Part shown: one piece after another, positions 1 through 34,994 of the stretch
How positions within the stretch are numbered: the first letter of the stretch is position 1
Layout of the letters: the number at the start of each line of letters is the position of its first letter
IMG/VR virus record: IMGVR_UViG_2529293140_000005
Span: 1-37,403 of that record
Source of the DNA: a virus
Lineage: Duplodnaviria; Heunggongvirae; Uroviricota; Caudoviricetes
Direction: 5' to 3' (one strand)
Length of the DNA stretch: 37,403 nt
Notes under the pieces: model-generated
Database searches by the model: none
Told to the model about the DNA's origin: nothing
The model's input: only the letters and a program-made list of their open reading frames with translations
Program-made: the position numbers and the translations under genes

Positions 1-230
<230 letters not shown>

Positions 231-240
231 ACGTTAAATC

Positions 241-997: not shown

Positions 998-1144
998 ATG
1001 ACAAAACAACTCAGTCCTTACCAGGACAAAATTCACAAACACATACTACGTGATCGCTTCCTGTCCAGCTTCAAGCAGCCTGGTCGATTCCGGGCTGAGT
1101 TGGAAAAAGTGAAGCTGATGCAGAAGGAGAAAGGTCATGAGTAA
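998..1144 (+). CDS. Small hypothetical protein (48 aa)
   Basis: ATG preceded by GGAG; the ORF ends inside the start of the O-like gene. No recognisable domain. Confidence 0.2.
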
Positions 1145-2036
1145 CATATCTAATCTAGCCGAAGCCAGAGAGGCCAGAAGGCTCCAGCAACCGCATCAAA
1201 GCAGCGGTAAGGGGTATGCCTTGCTGCACCGTAAAATTATGGATGTGCCGTTTTACAAGGACGCAGAAGCAGCGCATCTGTGGGTTCACTTAATCCTCAA
1301 AGCAAAGCATACGCCTGAGTATGTAATGACTAACGCAGGAGAAATTCTGGTAGGCAGAGGGAAGCTACTTGGCGGTAGAAACTCTCTGGCGTTTGAAACA
1401 GGACTCAAACCAGATCGCGTTCAGTACCTGCTTAGAAAGTTCAAAAAACTCGGCATGATTGACTGGGTTTCACACGGTAAATTCTCAGTTTTCTCGGTAG
1501 AGAAATATGACGATTATCAGTCAAATTTTGTACCAGCAGATTACCAGCAAATTACCACCTCAAAGCCAGAAATACCAATGCCTGCAAGCAATACTGTACC
1601 AGCAGATTACCAGCAAATTACCACAGATAAAGAATATAATAATATTATCTCTAATACTGACGTATTAGAGAGTACCGCAGCAGACAAAAAGTCTGACAAG
1701 AAAAAACCTTCCGTCAGCTGTCAGGATGTTGTCGATGCTTACCACGAAATCCTTCCTGAAGCGCCAAGAATCCGCGCACTGAATGACAAGCGTAAAAACC
1801 AGATCCGAACGTTCTGGCGCAAAGCCGGAGTGATAACCCGCCAGCTTGACGGACATGGGTTCACGATGCAGGACTGGAGAAATTATTTGAGCTACGTAGG
1901 CGAAAATTGCCGATGGATGTTCGAAGAGCGCCCAAACCATCAACGCGGAACCGTCTGGCACAAAAAGGGATTTGATTTCCTGCTTAACGATAATACCTAC
2001 CTGAAAGTTCGTGAGGGTGAACACGATGACCGATAA
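1137..2036 (+). CDS. Replication initiation protein (lambda O-position analogue)
   Basis: 299 aa directly upstream of the helicase gene. Contains internal iteron repeats and an adjacent AT-rich tract, the same arrangement as lambda ori inside O. Confidence 0.65.
1530..1624 (+). repeat. Putative origin iterons: two exact 29-bp direct repeats GTACCAGCAGATTACCAGCAAATTACCAC (1530..1558, 1596..1624)
   Basis: Exact duplicate seen in sequence (encodes [10 protein letters not shown] twice). Each copy contains ATTACCA sub-repeats. Followed by the AT-rich tract 1625..1660. Confidence 0.6.
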
Positions 2037-3462
2037 TTTTTATGCGCCGCCCCATAGCATCGAGGCAGAGCAGGCGGTGATTGGTGGATTGCTTCTGGAT
2101 GATGACAGCAGTGAGCGCGTCCAGAAAGTTCTGGCGATGCTGAAGCCCGATTCATTTTACAGCCGACCACACAAAATCCTTTTCGAAGAAATAACCAGAA
2201 TGCACCGGGAGCAAAAGCCAGTAGATGGCCTGACGCTTTTCGATGAACTGGAGCGTAAATCGTTAACGGTGTCTGTTGGCGGTTTTGCTTATATCGCTGA
2301 GATCGCAAAGAACACGCCAAGCGCAGCAAACATCGTTGCTTATGCAATGCAGGTTCGCGAAACCGCAATGGAACGCTACGCCATCAACCGCATGACTGAA
2401 GCGACGGAATTGCTCTATTCCCGCAACGGAATGACCGCAACACAGAAGTACGAAGCTATTCAGTCGATTTTCACGCAACTGACAGACCATGCAAAAACCG
2501 GATCGCGTCGCGGCCTTCGCTCATTTGGTGAGGTCATGGAAGACTGGGTTAGCGACCTTGAGAAGCGATTTGACCCGTCAGGCGAACAACGAGGAATGAG
2601 CACAGGGATCCCATCGCTGGACAGGATGCTGTCACCGAAAGGTCTGGTGAAAGGCTCTCTGTTTGTCATTGGCGCTCGCCCTAAGATGGGGAAAACGACG
2701 CTATACAGCCAGATGGCAATCAACTGCGCAGTGCATGAGAAAAAGCCCGCTCTGATGTTCAGCCTTGAAATGCCAGGTGACCAGATACTGGAAAAACTGG
2801 TAGGACAGAAGTCAGGTGTTAACCCGAATATTTTTTACCTTCCGGCGACAAATGACGCTGATGACGGCTATCAGGGTGATTACGATGGTGACTTCAACAG
2901 GGCGATCGAAACAGCAAATCGCTTGAGTGAAATCGACCTGCTTTACATCGACGACACGCCGGGATTATCTCTGGCTCAAATCGTCAGTGAAAGCCGTCGA
3001 ATCAAGCGAGAAAAAGGATGTGTTGGCATGATTCTGGTCGATTACCTGACACTAATGACCGCTGAGAAGGCCGATCGCAACGACCTTGCTTACGGCATGA
3101 TCACCAAAGGACTGAAGAACCTTGCCAAAGAGCTTGATTGCGTTGTTGTGCTTCTGACACAGCTTAACCGCGCATTGGAAAGCCGAACCAATAAACGCCC
3201 ATTACCAAGTGACTCGCGCGATACAGGGCAGATTGAACAGGATTGCGATTATTGGGTGGGGATCCATCGTGAAGGTGCTTTTGATGACAGTGTTCCACCT
3301 GGTGAAACCGAACTAATCCTTCGTCTCAATCGTCATGGCAATACCGGCACGGTGTATTGCATTCAGGCAAATGGCGCTATTTATGACACAGACCAACAGT
3401 CCGCTGAAATGCGCCGCCGTGAACGCGAGGAACCGCAATCCAAGAAGAAAGGAGGATTCTGA
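2026..3462 (+). CDS. DnaB-family replicative DNA helicase
   Basis: N-terminal SIEAEQAVIGGLLLD DnaB signature, Walker A GARPKMGKTT, Walker B ILVDYL. Start is ambiguous (2011 or 2026). Confidence 0.85.
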   Translation: MTDNFYAPPHSIEAEQAVIGGLLLDDDSSERVQKVLAMLKPDSFYSRPHKILFEEITRMHREQKPVDGLTLFDELERKSLTVSVGGFAYIAEIAKNTPSAANIVAYAMQVRETAMERYAINRMTEATELLYSRNGMTATQKYEAIQSIFTQLTDHAKTGSRRGLRSFGEVMEDWVSDLEKRFDPSGEQRGMSTGIPSLDRMLSPKGLVKGSLFVIGARPKMGKTTLYSQMAINCAVHEKKPALMFSLEMPGDQILEKLVGQKSGVNPNIFYLPATNDADDGYQGDYDGDFNRAIETANRLSEIDLLYIDDTPGLSLAQIVSESRRIKREKGCVGMILVDYLTLMTAEKADRNDLAYGMITKGLKNLAKELDCVVVLLTQLNRALESRTNKRPLPSDSRDTGQIEQDCDYWVGIHREGAFDDSVPPGETELILRLNRHGNTGTVYCIQANGAIYDTDQQSAEMRRREREEPQSKKKGGF

Positions 3463-29520: not shown

Positions 29521-30045
29521 ATGGCTATGAAATTATTTCCTGTAGTGCTATTTTTATGTTTTCTTTCATCTGGTTGCATGACTTCATCCGAGTATCATAA
29601 ATACTTAATTGATAGGATTGATGAAGGAGAAAACCAAAAGGTCGCCAAAATATTAAAAGAAAATGAGGAACACCAAGGTGGTGAATTCTTATGTAAAACA
29701 TTTGGCTCAGAATTTAAAGGCCTGAAACCAAATTCGGCAGTTAAAGTAATTGATGAAGTTGTTAGATTTAAAGTGTATGAACAAAACAACCTCATTTTTA
29801 CAAGCCCTGAACTTTCCATAAGTTCAAGAACCAAAGATAGGACGGCATCATTAGATGATGAAAATATTACTGCTAGTGTTTTCGCCGGTTACAGGGAGGA
29901 TGGCGTAGGGTACCGGTATGAAGTTAAGTTTGAAAGCAAAATAAAAGACGGTTCATTATATAAAGTTGTTTACGGAACGGCACATCAAATATTAACCCCA
30001 GTTTATGCAGGTAACATCACTATAAGTGAATGTAGAAAAATATAG
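29521..30045 (+). CDS. Lipoprotein moron (signal peptide, lipobox LSSGC), unknown function
   Basis: MAMKLFPVVLFLCFLSSGCMTSSEY. AT-rich. Own terminator downstream; the flanks are structural genes. Confidence 0.65.
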   Translation: MAMKLFPVVLFLCFLSSGCMTSSEYHKYLIDRIDEGENQKVAKILKENEEHQGGEFLCKTFGSEFKGLKPNSAVKVIDEVVRFKVYEQNNLIFTSPELSISSRTKDRTASLDDENITASVFAGYREDGVGYRYEVKFESKIKDGSLYKVVYGTAHQILTPVYAGNITISECRKI

Positions 30046-30063
30046 AGCCTTTAATTTCACACT

Positions 30064-30086
30064 AACCCGCTTCGGCGGGTTTTTTA
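30064..30086 (+). terminator. Rho-independent terminator after the lipoprotein gene
   Basis: AACCCGC TTCG GCGGGTT hairpin followed by TTTTT. Confidence 0.65.
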
Positions 30087-30106
30087 TGCCTAAATCCGGA
30101 GGAGAC

Positions 30107-32254
30107 ATGGCACTAACCCTTTTGGCTACAAACAACGCAGAAAGCACGCTGGCTTCTGCTATCAGCGCAACCGACACGTCGCTGATCGTTAGCGCTGGAA
30201 CTGGTGCCGAGTTCCCTGATGCTGTGGCAGGCGAGAGTTATTTTAAGCTCACTCTCACTGATGCCGCCACCGGTTCACAGGTTGAGATCGTGAACGTGAC
30301 AGCTAAGGCTGGGGACATCTTCACGATTGAACGTGCGCAAGAAGGAACGCTGGCGCGTGCTTGGGCGGCCAATGATATGGTTGCCAACATGATGACGGCG
30401 GACACGCTGAACATTATCGCTCAATATTCCCAGCAGGCAGCTGCATCAGCAGCACTGGCTGAAGAGTATGCAGATAACGCTTCTGACTACGCACAGAATA
30501 AGTTCACGTTCTATAAGACTGCCAGCGATCCTGATGGCACCATCGCAGGGCTGGCAGCAACTACTGACGGCCAGTCTTTCTGGGTAGCCCAGGGTCCGGA
30601 TGCGCTTTCTTCTGCATGGCAGTATCAAAACAAAGCAGGCGTGGCCGTATTGCAGGCGAAGCAGCCGGGTACAGCGGCCATAACAGGGACAACCCGCGAG
30701 TTTCCGACGCTGGCTGCGGCACAGGCTGATGCTGACGCAGGGAATATACAACCAGGAGCGAAATGCTGGGTGACAAGCGCGGATGATAGCTCTCTTGCAA
30801 ATGAATATATAAACAACTCCGGAACTTTGCAGCCTACAGGAGTAATCTCTCCTTCTTCAAAAACAATCGATAATAAAATTAATGAACGCCTCGTCCCAGG
30901 TGAATACAGGCCTGGTTATTTCCCGGCCTTCTTTGACAGGAATGGTATGGTGCCAGCATGGTTTGATGGCGGCAAATTTGATGTGGCAGGACTGGGGCCA
31001 AATGTTACACAGGTTGTTTCTGAAATTCCAAACGAATGGGCCCAGAAGTTTATCCCGCAAGGAGACTTTTCACCTTATTACTTTCCTTTTTTATATGACC
31101 AACAAGGGAACGTATATGCTTGGTTTAATGGTGGGCTATTCGATGCTCCAGGTCTTGGCCCGGTATTGCAGGAATATGTCAAAAACCTGGTGTCTGGTGG
31201 GGAAGTTGATGCGGTACGTTCCTTCATCGAAGGAGATCAGTACAAGTTCCTTTTCAAAAATAGCCGTATTTTTGCTGGCCAGTCTACCAGCCTAAACATT
31301 GCTTTTACCGGCGATTCGTGGACAGAGAAAAACACCATTCCTCAGTCTTTAATTAATATTCTTGGTGGTACATACAAAGACCCTGGCTGGATTAGTTGTT
31401 CAAACAGAACAGATGGTGTCATGTCTGGAATATCACCAGTAACCGCAACAAACTTTACGAAATATGACGGTGGCAGCAATAACACGAACATTCCGCCGTA
31501 TGGCTGTGGCCCTGATGGCAACGGATACTACAACAACAACACTGTTGGTTCGCTCGTATGGACGGGCGTGACCGTAACAAATCTTTCGGTATTTTACTAT
31601 GATGGGTCTGGAACGTTCACCATCACCATCGACAGCAATGCACCTGTAACAATCACGGGAGGGAATACAGGGACTGCCAAGAAGTATGATTTCAGCGGAC
31701 TTAGCGCTACTGCACATACGGTGACAATCCAAAGCACCGGTACTGGTGTTGTTTCCATTCTTGGTATGTATGGTAAAAATAACTCAATATCATCAGGGGT
31801 GACTGTATCCAGGATGGGTAATGGAGGAGCATTTGCAAGTGACTATTTCAACTTTTCATCATGGATAAAGCCAGTAGCTCAATACCTTGATATAGACCTC
31901 CTTTTTATTATTCTTGGAACGAATGACTTCCGGATGAGTCAGGGGCTAGCTGAGTACAAATCTGGGATTATTGAAATAATTACTAAATATAGAAGCGCAA
32001 CTCCTGATATTTGCATTTGCCTTATGTCCCCTGCACAGTGTAACGCCACAGGAACACCCGCACTGTCAGAATACGATAAAGCAATGAGGGAAATAGCGGT
32101 TGAATATAATGTAAATTTCATTAGTGGTTATCAATTATTCCCCAAAGTGTATAGCAGTTCAGGAGGTGCGTGGGAAGATGCCTTGCATCTTAGCGCCTTG
32201 GGCGCATATGTACTAACGAGAAAGATCAAAAAAGAATTTTTCCTGGGAGCTTAA
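30107..32254 (+). CDS. Tail fibre/spike protein with a C-terminal SGNH/GDSL hydrolase (esterase) domain
   Basis: ATG at 30107 with GGAGGAG RBS. N-terminus homologous to the second fibre gene. GDSL block IAFTGDSWTE, later ILGTNDF and DALHLS. Confidence 0.7.
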   Translation: MALTLLATNNAESTLASAISATDTSLIVSAGTGAEFPDAVAGESYFKLTLTDAATGSQVEIVNVTAKAGDIFTIERAQEGTLARAWAANDMVANMMTADTLNIIAQYSQQAAASAALAEEYADNASDYAQNKFTFYKTASDPDGTIAGLAATTDGQSFWVAQGPDALSSAWQYQNKAGVAVLQAKQPGTAAITGTTREFPTLAAAQADADAGNIQPGAKCWVTSADDSSLANEYINNSGTLQPTGVISPSSKTIDNKINERLVPGEYRPGYFPAFFDRNGMVPAWFDGGKFDVAGLGPNVTQVVSEIPNEWAQKFIPQGDFSPYYFPFLYDQQGNVYAWFNGGLFDAPGLGPVLQEYVKNLVSGGEVDAVRSFIEGDQYKFLFKNSRIFAGQSTSLNIAFTGDSWTEKNTIPQSLINILGGTYKDPGWISCSNRTDGVMSGISPVTATNFTKYDGGSNNTNIPPYGCGPDGNGYYNNNTVGSLVWTGVTVTNLSVFYYDGSGTFTITIDSNAPVTITGGNTGTAKKYDFSGLSATAHTVTIQSTGTGVVSILGMYGKNNSISSGVTVSRMGNGGAFASDYFNFSSWIKPVAQYLDIDLLFIILGTNDFRMSQGLAEYKSGIIEIITKYRSATPDICICLMSPAQCNATGTPALSEYDKAMREIAVEYNVNFISGYQLFPKVYSSSGGAWEDALHLSALGAYVLTRKIKKEFFLGA

Positions 32255-33019: not shown

Positions 33020-33259
33020 TTATGCGCTCAGATGTTTGACACATGAGAAGAATTGCAATTTACCGCCATCAGTAAGCTCCACCATTATCGTGTTAGTGCC
33101 ATCTGAAGTTTCAGCCCAACCATGTGACTGTAGGGCCTCGTAGTCAACCCCATTTTTGCTGAGCTTGAGGCCCAGGTCATCGGATTTACGTAGTATTCTG
33201 CGAACAAGAGTGTCACTTTTTGTACTCATTTTGGTGGCGGAGTGTCTTGGATAAAACAT
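33020..33259 (-). CDS. Small hypothetical protein (69-79 aa), divergent from the LexA-box operon
   Basis: Minus-strand ORF; alternative start at 33229; no recognisable motif. Confidence 0.3.
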   Translation of the reverse strand: MFYPRHSATKMSTKSDTLVRRILRKSDDLGLKLSKNGVDYEALQSHGWAETSDGTNTIMVELTDGGKLQFFSCVKHLSA

Positions 33260-33357
33260 GTATTGATATCAATTAGTTGTGTGAAAAGCAATTTAAGAGG
33301 CTACCGGAAGATAAAACAAAGTCATCATCAAGTATTGATCCGACTCTTTGATGAAAC

Positions 33358-33377
33358 TACTGTATATAAAAACAGTA
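33358..33377. promoter_or_regulatory. LexA (SOS) box TACTGTATATAAAAACAGTA
   Basis: Perfect CTGT-N8-ACAG palindrome with an AT-rich spacer, 18 bp upstream of the ATG at 33395; RBS GGAGG at 33384..33388. Confidence 0.75.
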
Positions 33378-33394
33378 TCAATCGGAGGCAGATC

Positions 33395-33634
33395 ATGCAC
33401 CGTCAGTCAGACATCGCCGCGGCTTTCCGCGAGTCCATTTTGCGCAGTTCCAAGGGGTTCCAGTACCTTCACACCCGAGACTTCGTTACCGCACTGCTCC
33501 TGCGCGGCATCCACTTATCCGAGGTGGAGGCGAACTCCTGGATCGCACGCGAGCAGACGTATTTCGTCGATAAGACGCCGGACCATAGCGAAAACAGGCT
33601 GTGGATGATGGTCAACATGGGGAGGGTGATCTAA
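33395..33634 (+). CDS. Small SOS-regulated protein (79 aa), unknown function
   Basis: First gene after the LexA box; its stop overlaps the next start (TAATG). Confidence 0.5.
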   Translation: MHRQSDIAAAFRESILRSSKGFQYLHTRDFVTALLLRGIHLSEVEANSWIAREQTYFVDKTPDHSENRLWMMVNMGRVI

Positions 33635-33951
33635 TGGGATTCCCTTCACCCGCGACGGACTACGTAGAACAGCGCCTGTCCGTTAACTCGATATGCAATG
33701 TCGGGCCGAACACCCGCGTTTTCGAAAGGGATGGCGGTTATGTTGTGCTGGATATCTCCCTGAAGCCAAAGCAGGGAAGCCAGGTTCTTATCCAGCACGG
33801 CGGCGGGACCGAACTTGCCACGTTGAGAGGGCGTTCGCTGATTACTGAAGACGGCGAAGCGATTGAAGGTGAGGTCCTGGACGATGTTACTGTCATCGGG
33901 GTCGTGACGTTTACTATCTGCGATGTTCGTTCTGATAATTCTATTATTTAA
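33634..33951 (+). CDS. UmuD'-like protein (S24 fold, pre-truncated, lacking Ser/Lys catalytic residues)
   Basis: N-terminus MGFPSPATDYVEQR matches the UmuD region just after the Cys24-Gly25 cleavage site (GFPSPAADYVEQR). The core aligns with UmuD', but the GDSM Ser segment is absent and the Lys position is not conserved. Confidence 0.6.
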   Translation: MGFPSPATDYVEQRLSVNSICNVGPNTRVFERDGGYVVLDISLKPKQGSQVLIQHGGGTELATLRGRSLITEDGEAIEGEVLDDVTVIGVVTFTICDVRSDNSII

Positions 33952-33962
33952 CTGGGGTATAT

Positions 33963-34994
33963 ATGGCGCTTAAGCTATTAGCCAATAATAACGCAAAGAG
34001 TGTTCTCGCTGCGGGTATTAGCGCGTCCGCTACCGTTATTACCGTGGGTGCTGGGGCGGGGGCTTTATTCCCTTCCCCAGTATCTGGGCAGAGTTATTTC
34101 AAGTTAACGATAACCGACGCGGCCACGAAAACAATTTCTGAAATTATGCACGTTACGTCTGTATCCGGTGACGTGATGACAGTAATTCGTGGTCAGGAAG
34201 GAACTACGGCGCGCGTATGGTCAACGAATGACATTGTCGCGAATTTAATGACCGCCGGGTCATTATTATCTTTCCTGCAGATCGGTAATAACCTGTCAGA
34301 AATTAAAGATGCCGGTGAGGATGCGATAAATGAAGCCCGTTATAACCTCGGAATATCTGATTCCTCTGGTTTTGTCGGGCGTTCACTTGGCGCTCCAAAA
34401 GCTTTCTATGCAAACGGAACCTATACGCGATCTCCTCTGGCCCGTTATGCAAAAGTAACGTTGACCGGTGCCGGTGGCGGCGGTGGCGGCTGCCAGGCCT
34501 CCAACAATACAGAAACCTTCTCCGGTGCTGGCGGCGGCGCGGGCGCGACCATTATCGTATGGGTTGACCTGTCTGCTGCCAGTTCTTACGCGATTACTGT
34601 CGGCAAGGGTGGTAAGGGCGGAGTTGGCGCAGTAAGTGGTGCGGATGGTGGTGCTACCTCGTTTGCCAGCCTGTTCTCAGCTCCTGGCGGGAAAGGCGGC
34701 GTGAAGTCAGGCGTGTCCAATACCGCCGGCGGCGCCGGAGGTACGGCGGCGACCGGAGATATCAGGATCAACGGTGGTACCGGCTCAGATGGACAGACAG
34801 GGTCAAGCCTTCTGACAGGCAACGGTGGGGCGTCGTATTTTGGCGGCGGTGGCCGGGCGGGTTCTCAGGCCGGTATTGCTGGCGCAGCTCCCGGATCCGG
34901 TGGTGGTGGCGCGTATGACCTTGGGTTTACCGGTACGGCATTTACCGGTGGTGATGGTGCTACTGGCATGGCGATCGTGGAAGAATTCGCGTAA
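33963..34994 (+). CDS. Second tail-fibre protein with a Gly-rich C-terminal domain
   Basis: First ~100 aa homologous to the N-terminus of fibre 1 (MALKLLANNNAKSVLAAGISA... vs MALTLLATNNAESTLASAISA...). C-terminus is Gly-rich repeats. Confidence 0.6.
   Translation: MALKLLANNNAKSVLAAGISASATVITVGAGAGALFPSPVSGQSYFKLTITDAATKTISEIMHVTSVSGDVMTVIRGQEGTTARVWSTNDIVANLMTAGSLLSFLQIGNNLSEIKDAGEDAINEARYNLGISDSSGFVGRSLGAPKAFYANGTYTRSPLARYAKVTLTGAGGGGGGCQASNNTETFSGAGGGAGATIIVWVDLSAASSYAITVGKGGKGGVGAVSGADGGATSFASLFSAPGGKGGVKSGVSNTAGGAGGTAATGDIRINGGTGSDGQTGSSLLTGNGGASYFGGGGRAGSQAGIAGAAPGSGGGGAYDLGFTGTAFTGGDGATGMAIVEEFA

Follow-up and report, generated by a model that had tools for sequence, protein, structure and literature searches.

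The window, that is, the whole stretch of 37,403 nucleotides that was analyzed, is a lambdoid prophage adjoining a tRNA-Arg gene, and its integrase is of the IntS type. E. coli strain F5 carries an identical stretch of 1.2 kb around the two-gene module described here, and the early region of the window is not colinear with the strain F5 record. The coordinates and sequences given in the original prediction check out. The module and its surroundings comprise the following features:

33335 to 33340, plus strand: -35 hexamer TTGATC of the SOS promoter, its role assigned by homology
33358 to 33377, plus strand: LexA box TACTGTATATAAAAACAGTA, whose left end TACTGT (33358-33363) is also the -10 hexamer
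33395 to 33634, plus strand: ORF1, 79 aa, predicted winged-helix protein (PHROG 3893)
33634 to 33951, plus strand: ORF2, 105 aa, "mini-HumD", with the UmuD' N-terminal arm and an S24-type β-domain lacking the catalytic loop
33963 to 34994, plus strand: tail-fiber gene with a Gly_rich_2 domain (PHROG tail-fiber families and Pfam PF21722)
33023 to 33229, minus strand: divergent 69-codon ORF of uncertain status, outside the conserved module

Each gene of the module has a GGAGG Shine-Dalgarno sequence, located at 33384-33388 for ORF1 and at 33621-33625 for ORF2, and the ORF1 stop codon overlaps the ORF2 start codon in the pentamer TAATG. The box at 33358-33377 and this overlap bear out the original prediction of an SOS-box-controlled pair of coupled genes. 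Two alternative starts were dropped. A GTG at 33242 would extend ORF1 to 130 residues and a GTG at 33601 would extend ORF2 to 116 residues, but the homologues of both begin at the ATG with its own Shine-Dalgarno sequence, and the upstream sequence is promoter in the first case and part of ORF1 in the second.

The next gene encodes a tail fiber (33963-34994), as had been predicted. It begins 11 nt past the end of ORF2, and a search for a terminator-like site between the two genes found none; it is probably co-transcribed with the module. The same gene stands behind the module in RothC and is absent from this place in other lineages. The gene preceding the module is a member of a tail-fiber cluster. 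The G+C content of the module is 55–57%, compared with 39–45% in the flanks as measured on the left side. The module has the same end-of-prophage position in elements of the siphovirus, myovirus, and podovirus types. Of the traits of a phage moron, it has its own promoter, a G+C shift, and a position near the prophage end, and a terminator after ORF2 was not found. The locus is best explained as a horizontally mobile, LexA-repressed cassette ("moron") at the tail-fiber/integrase end of a lambdoid prophage; for this reading taken as a whole, our confidence stops a little short of even.

Several observations concern the prophage around the module. The tail-fiber genes at 30026-32254 and 33963-34994, which flank the module, have an N-terminal anchor domain of ~100 aa in common and differ in their distal parts, which contain an SGNH/GDSL hydrolase and a glycine-rich domain, respectively. 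Given the shared anchor and the different distal parts, the SOS module would have an alternative receptor-binding protein on either side. For the second tail-fiber gene, the PGAP annotation of strain F5 shows only a shortened form. The record NZ_CP141750.1 (47,948 bp) of E. coli 2023CK-01482, typed as a plasmid, carries the same module as the chromosomal copy in that strain. It is probably an excised circular phage genome, which would mean an active phage type. At the left end, the window starts inside a lambda-like cI gene (1-233, minus strand), and a lambda-like Cro is encoded at 331-531. The cI frame shifts in an A-run after about codon 26, which leaves a 57-codon ORF, and the lambda CI sequence goes on in another frame. 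The frameshift is either a pseudogene mutation or a homopolymer sequencing error.

The small divergent gene had been drawn at 33020-33259, sharing the intergenic region. Related prophages keep only its 69-codon core (33023-33229) intact, and the 10-codon upstream extension has a stop codon in one of them (L020). In three related E. coli prophages the core has no disruption, and its dN/dS, calculated from few changes, is 0.27-0.45. It has no family matches, no clear Shine-Dalgarno sequence, and no PGAP call; some Klebsiella annotations do call it as a gene. The ORF is also missing from the Klebsiella-phage versions of the module. It does not belong to the conserved unit, and its extent as originally drawn is doubtful. 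The equivalent divergent position is occupied by a DinI-like gene sharing the LexA box in HK225 and Eeyore, and by lxr in P1.

LexA box and SOS promoter

The core CTGT-N8-ACAG occurs three times in the window, where 0.44 occurrences are expected. The other two sites are intragenic and have G+C-rich spacers, so the site at 33358-33377 is the only box with an A+T spacer. Its 20-mer, TACTGTATATAAAAACAGTA, is identical to the umuD operator of E. coli K-12, and the same 20-mer has been given upstream of umuD and sbmC (PMC3009722, Table 4). It differs at two spacer positions from the idealized TACTG(TA)5CAGTA. The word "perfect", which the original prediction had used for this box, is thus to be taken on sequence grounds as "identical to a strong natural operator". 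The site follows the LexA-regulon pattern TACTG-N10-CAGTA and overlaps the -10 hexamer.

The surrounding promoter is homologous to that of umuDC. It reads GTATTGATC, a 17-nt spacer, and ACTACTGTATATAAAAACAGTAT, followed by GGCAGAT ahead of the start codon. The -35 hexamer and the 17-nt spacer are kept in the window, in the E. coli K-12 umuDC promoter, and in six phage loci, and the homology with umuDC extends to the Shine-Dalgarno region. Judged by this similarity, the promoter and operator evidently share ancestry with those of umuDC, a relation that we count as new. A box lies at the same offset 5' of the homologues in all seven hand-checked loci; it precedes the ORF1 homologues of RothC, Eeyore, HK225, Midgardsormr38, phiES15, and LAU1 at this offset despite diverged flanks. 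Among the IMG/VR loci, 70 of 80 have the box at the expected place, a further seven have it upstream of an inserted group II intron (77/80 together), and in one it is cut by an IS element. Since the box is retained at a fixed offset across diverged loci, LexA control appears to be a conserved property of the module.

Structure and conservation of ORF2

ORF2 starts MGFPSPATDYVEQR. The sequence after the initiator methionine (M-GFPSPATDYVEQR) is the N-terminus of UmuD' (M-GFPSPA...), with neither leader nor cleavage site. When the protein is aligned with UmuD, a gap of 11–12 residues takes out UmuD residues ~57-67, including the Ser60 loop. A second, smaller deletion of 3–6 residues, depending on the reference, follows UmuD residue 102. 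The columns of UmuD Glu93, Thr95, and Lys97 hold Gly, Glu, and Ala, respectively. Hence the Ser-Lys dyad is absent, as the original prediction had claimed, with the Ser60 loop deleted and Lys97 replaced by Ala. ORF2 has neither this dyad nor the Ala/Cys-Gly cleavage site that characterize the S24 (LexA/UmuD) autopeptidases, and it does have the S24 β-domain fold.

ORF2 matches PHROG 3469 ("UmuD-like protein") with E = 3e-46. Against the NCBIfam HumD equivalog model NF051876, it reaches 46 bits, below the cut-off of 120 bits, and five other mini-type proteins score 25–39 bits; the controls, P1 HumD (221 bits) and a 127-aa protein of IncX plasmids (168 bits), both pass. Against the NCBIfam UmuD model NF007621, it scores 31 bits with a cut-off of 110, and the match is confined to arm residues 2-22. 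Pfam S24 (PF00717) gives no match at E <= 1 for ORF2 and five relatives, and is passed by UmuD, HumD, and the IncX protein. In a phmmer search of the PDB, ORF2 matches UmuD/UmuD' in the arm alone. A profile–profile comparison between the ORF2 family and a UmuD/HumD alignment gives a probability of 99.5% over the full length. ORF2 is an S24/UmuD'-fold protein, and its start at the arm agrees with the earlier claim that this UmuD'-like product is synthesized in the "cleaved" form from the outset.

The ORF2 family forms 207 clusters at 50% identity, mostly of 104–109 aa. The motif MGFPSPAxDYxE is near-invariant, and the arm, GFPSPAxDYxE, is the best-conserved region of the family. A motif I-T-x-D-G-E-x-I-E-G is specific to the family, and an acidic tail ending in P-V-I, present in most members, is common to HumD. 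The family is found in thousands of Klebsiella and E. coli prophages. One cluster at 90% identity has 3207 members, mostly from Klebsiella, and the locus is matched in 133 of 5426 complete E. coli genomes. The mini-HumD subfamily is far commoner than HumD itself.

The loss of catalytic residues, the deletion of ~20 residues, and the frequency with which mobile elements insert at the promoter could be taken to indicate a decaying umuD/humD remnant without present function. Comparison of the window with two related E. coli prophages gives ORF2 a dN/dS of 0.07-0.09 at a dS of 0.5-0.65. Moreover, protein length is conserved over the 207 clusters, and so are the start, the Shine-Dalgarno sequence, the operator, and the arm. 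A remnant is thus extremely unlikely, and by these substitution patterns ORF2 is a working gene under strong purifying selection, not a relic.

One representative protein, P0167 (141 aa), has a UmuD-like 24-residue leader with a Cys-Gly cleavage site joined to a mini-type core without the Ser loop. It may have arisen by recombination of a host umuD with a prophage mini-HumD gene within the stretch that encodes the arm in both, or it may be a chimera of the assembly.

Comparison with HumD and related operons

The closest known system is P1 HumD, together with N15 gp26 and phiKO2 gp23. Like ORF2, these are phage-borne, LexA-box-controlled UmuD' homologues that start MGFPSPA, lack a cognate umuC, and finish in an acidic C-terminal tail whose last residues are P-V-I or similar. 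HumD is the subject of McLenigan (1999). The P1 record annotates humD as LexA-regulated, as lacking umuC, and as functionally complementing UmuD'. Dimerization and binding to UmuC and to RecA filaments have been reported for HumD. It has 129 aa to the 105 aa of ORF2; it clears both the NCBIfam HumD and the Pfam S24 models and keeps Lys97 and a Ser alignable with Ser60, none of which holds for ORF2. Because ORF2 fails the HumD, UmuD, and S24 models, the tested activity of HumD is not simply transferable to it. In P1, humD is paired with the divergent lxr; ORF2 is paired with ORF1. E. coli UmuD' arises from RecA-processed UmuD, whereas ORF2 is made directly, without the 24-residue leader or the cleavage site, and also lacks the catalytic dyad, an adjacent umuC, and the cleft residues modeled to bind the UmuC tail.

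IncX plasmids (such as pAD-19R and pYUHAP1) have ORF1-HumD pairs in the same gene order, with an ORF1 homologue of 39% identity, a LexA box remnant, and no umuC. They differ in that the second gene encodes a full 127-aa HumD (168 bits, passing Pfam S24) and in that the promoter is broken by ISKox3. The impCAB, mucAB, and umuDC operons are likewise under SOS-box control and include a gene of the UmuD type; in impCAB, too, a small gene comes first. The module has no polymerase gene, and its UmuD-type protein is pre-truncated and non-cleavable. The YqjX/YolD-type small subunits of Gram-positive Y-family polymerases illustrate that accessory subunits can be related by an N-terminal arm alone, which is inserted into the polymerase (PMC12926913). 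Their logic of a conserved arm on a variable scaffold resembles that of ORF2; they are unrelated in sequence and encoded beside their own polymerase, and the comparison is conceptual only.

Taken by its sequence relationships, ORF2 is a derived "mini-HumD" branch of the HumD lineage. The locus, which the original prediction had called the least explained in the window, belongs to a family catalogued already as PHROG 3469, and a catalytically dead, pre-cleaved, SOS-controlled phage UmuD' without UmuC is the known HumD paradigm (1999), not a new category. What appears new from the model scores and alignments is a 105-aa subfamily that fails the curated HumD, UmuD, and S24 models, and the loss of the catalytic loop and the predicted UmuC-tail contacts with retention of the arm. 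New, too, is a winged-helix partner common to the module and to plasmid HumD genes. In the literature searched, neither the 105-aa family nor ORF1 was the subject of any study, and experiments on a 105-aa member did not turn up; a paper on Gifsy-1 STM14_3218-3220 proved unrelated to the module.

Predicted winged-helix partner

ORF1 has no sequence match in Pfam, NCBIfam, or the PDB. Its predicted structure has the winged-helix order H1-S1-H2-H3-S2-S3, and we consider it a predicted winged-helix protein. A search of a viral fold library with ORF1 returned only the HK225 orthologue. The ORF1 family has a median net charge of +1 and a pI of 8.0, which give no strong hint for or against DNA binding.

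ORF1 lies directly 5' of ORF2 in 66 of the 80 viral loci. It is missing in the other 14, where the same promoter and Shine-Dalgarno sequence drive ORF2 alone. ORF1 homologues of 39% identity precede the 127-aa HumD gene on IncX3 and IncX1 plasmids, and ORF1 occurs without ORF2 in HK225 and in a Pantoea plasmid. By gene content, it is a frequent yet dispensable partner of HumD-type genes.

Two other identities were considered for ORF1 and rejected. The likeness to impC-impA-impB drawn in the original prediction does not hold for the first gene, as ORF1 matches no Pfam family (DinI included) and is predicted to be a winged-helix protein; ImpC, in contrast, is presumably DinI-like. Its true counterparts are the genes preceding the IncX HumD genes. 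The P1 protein Lxr was ruled out as well, because tblastn finds no ORF1 match in P1 and lxr is a divergent gene of 190 aa. Some NCBI records name ORF1 "DNA polymerase V", a name for which we found no support.

A winged-helix protein next to an S24-type protein could also form a split LexA/CI-like regulator or antirepressor, with ORF1 as the DNA-binding half and ORF2 as the dimerization half; in a variant, the C-terminal domain of CI or LexA would be the partner of ORF2, with a change in repression or cleavage. An antirepressor had been among the earlier suggestions. The module accompanies many unrelated immunity regions, three tail morphotypes, and plasmids; ORF1 is optional, and the prophage has a lambda-type region with Cro and a RecA-cleavable CI. 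These facts make both forms of the regulator very unlikely.

HK225 (L006:3001-3300) has an ORF1 homologue of 99 aa, extended at the C-terminus, and the gene behind it encodes a DNA invertase instead of a mini-HumD. Several "ORF1" proteins in the databases carry resolvase or HTH_7 Pfam fragments. The HK225 invertase and these fragments suggest that ORF2 has repeatedly been swapped for an invertase cassette.

Possible action on host Pol V

A tblastn search of the window with E. coli UmuC turned up no homologue (best E = 1.3), and in none of the 80 viral loci is there a umuC within ~6 kb of the gene, so the absence of a UmuC partner asserted in the original prediction stands. Of 5426 complete E. 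coli genomes, 5423 carry umuC, and a host partner is thus always at hand. Since no module-bearing element encodes UmuC, ORF2 would have to act on that of the host.

We propose that ORF2 stands in for UmuD' as a ready-made surrogate and engages the UmuC of the host at late SOS, a role to which we give nearly an even chance. Because host umuDC has a homologous promoter and operator, the latter with the same 20-mer, binding of LexA would keep the cassette silent in the lysogen and it would switch on together with umuDC, late in strong SOS; read-through from the phage late operon is also expected. Methionine aminopeptidase removes an initiator methionine before glycine. Its action on ORF2 would leave the same N-terminal Gly that RecA-stimulated cleavage gives in UmuD'. 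With this Gly exposed, ORF2 would be ready for use without RecA-dependent processing, which it could not carry out, and the slow UmuD step would be bypassed. In AlphaFold-based models of Pol V, the UmuD' arm inserts in the UmuC palm/little-finger cleft beside the active site, and armless UmuD' dimerizes but fails to support mutagenesis (PMC11791011, PMC12926913). The near-invariant arm of ORF2 would take the same place in host UmuC. The outcome we infer, as for P1 HumD, is that Pol V-type lesion bypass would be given or sped up on damaged phage and host DNA at induction, which probably helps the replication of damaged phage DNA. ORF1 would act as a co-translated, optional winged-helix accessory factor.

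The same models place UmuC's C-terminal tail in the former active-site cleft of the other UmuD', touching Ser60, Glu93, Thr95, and Lys97 (PMC11791011, PMC12926913). With Ser60 deleted and the other three replaced by Gly, Glu, and Ala, binding of the normal UmuD'2C type would be doubtful, and ORF2 could be inert or inhibitory towards UmuC. The lost tail-binding cleft, as modeled, is the main argument against a simple surrogate and leaves room for a blocker or re-programmer. As a dominant-negative decoy, ORF2 would plug the UmuC cleft with its arm or heterodimerize through its core with host UmuD or UmuD'. For want of the tail cleft, no productive mutasome would form, and the phage would limit error-prone synthesis or the UmuD2C checkpoint while replicating. 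Such a Pol V blocker fits the retention of the arm alongside the deletion or replacement of the modeled contacts, and it fits the strongly constrained mini form having supplanted full HumD in most phage lineages. However, without its main anchor the protein would be a poor competitor of UmuD'2, and HumD, the nearest tested relative, promotes mutagenesis. We regard the blocker as unlikely.

ORF2 could instead act on another partner of UmuD/UmuD', such as RecA*, DinB, or the α, β, or ε subunit of Pol III, and, much as DinI or PsiB do, adjust how long SOS lasts, recombination, or the restart of replication; ORF1 would then be its co-factor. The products of umuD have been described as "polymerase manager" proteins that have many partners. 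In HK225 and Eeyore, DinI-like genes diverge from the same LexA box, which suggests that the locus collects SOS/RecA modulators. Full-length UmuD mostly uses its N-terminal 24 residues to contact its partners; these residues are absent in ORF2, and the strongest constraint falls on the UmuD'-specific arm, which makes this modulator distinctly unlikely. PADLOC, searched for a defense or anti-defense role, gave no matches for ORF1, ORF2, the divergent ORF, or the neighboring genes.

A further reading, bold and rather doubtful, is that ORF2 is a natural "arm-only" ligand of UmuC on a dimeric scaffold from which the cleft for the UmuC tail has been lost. Rather than just substituting for UmuD', the module would then be a phage and plasmid switch by which the Pol V of the host is reprogrammed or turned off at late SOS, and ORF1 a previously unrecognized accessory of the Pol V/RecA network. 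If this holds, ORF1 on IncX3 plasmids could influence mutagenesis under SOS and thereby how resistance evolves.

To our knowledge, explanations for the presence of orphan, pre-processed UmuD' genes on temperate phages and plasmids have been speculative since HumD (1999). ORF2 is in effect a natural deletion experiment, as the arm modeled at the UmuC active site is kept and the UmuC-tail cleft discarded, and tests of mini-HumD would thereby probe the Pol V models directly. They would also bear on whether SOS mutagenesis in Enterobacterales of clinical importance is sped up, redirected, or suppressed by mobile elements. ORF1 is a conserved, uncharacterized protein, predicted to be SOS-regulated, that lies beside HumD on IncX3 plasmids, some of which have NDM in their names.

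Insertions at the LexA box

Two kinds of mobile element insert at the operator. The first is a ~1.9-kb group II intron (Rfam RF02005, 186.6 bits), inserted right after ...TATAAAAACAGT, the 3' edge of the LexA box. It was located at L024:3814-5742 and L097:about 1100-3014, and also in L037, L042, L056, L068, and L076, as well as in L101 and L102. The intron is present in 7 of the 80 viral loci. The sequences downstream differ among the loci, which suggests independent insertions. The same intron occurs in 217 of 5426 E. coli genomes, where it is mostly plasmid-borne, and the box is in its 5' flank in 215 records. In pOXA-48, it abuts the SOS box of the plasmid umuDC-like operon in the opposite orientation. 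The intron thus appears to home to umuDC-type SOS operators, and no earlier description of such homing was found in the literature searched.

The second element is ISKox3 of the ISL3 family. On IncX3 and IncX1 plasmids and on one viral contig (L011:about 2900-3000, L012:about 2900-3000, and L062 upstream of 6001), the LexA box of the ORF1-HumD module is interrupted by the end of this element, ...GGGAAGACCCAT. The box is reduced in these places to its right half, so that LexA control has probably been lost.
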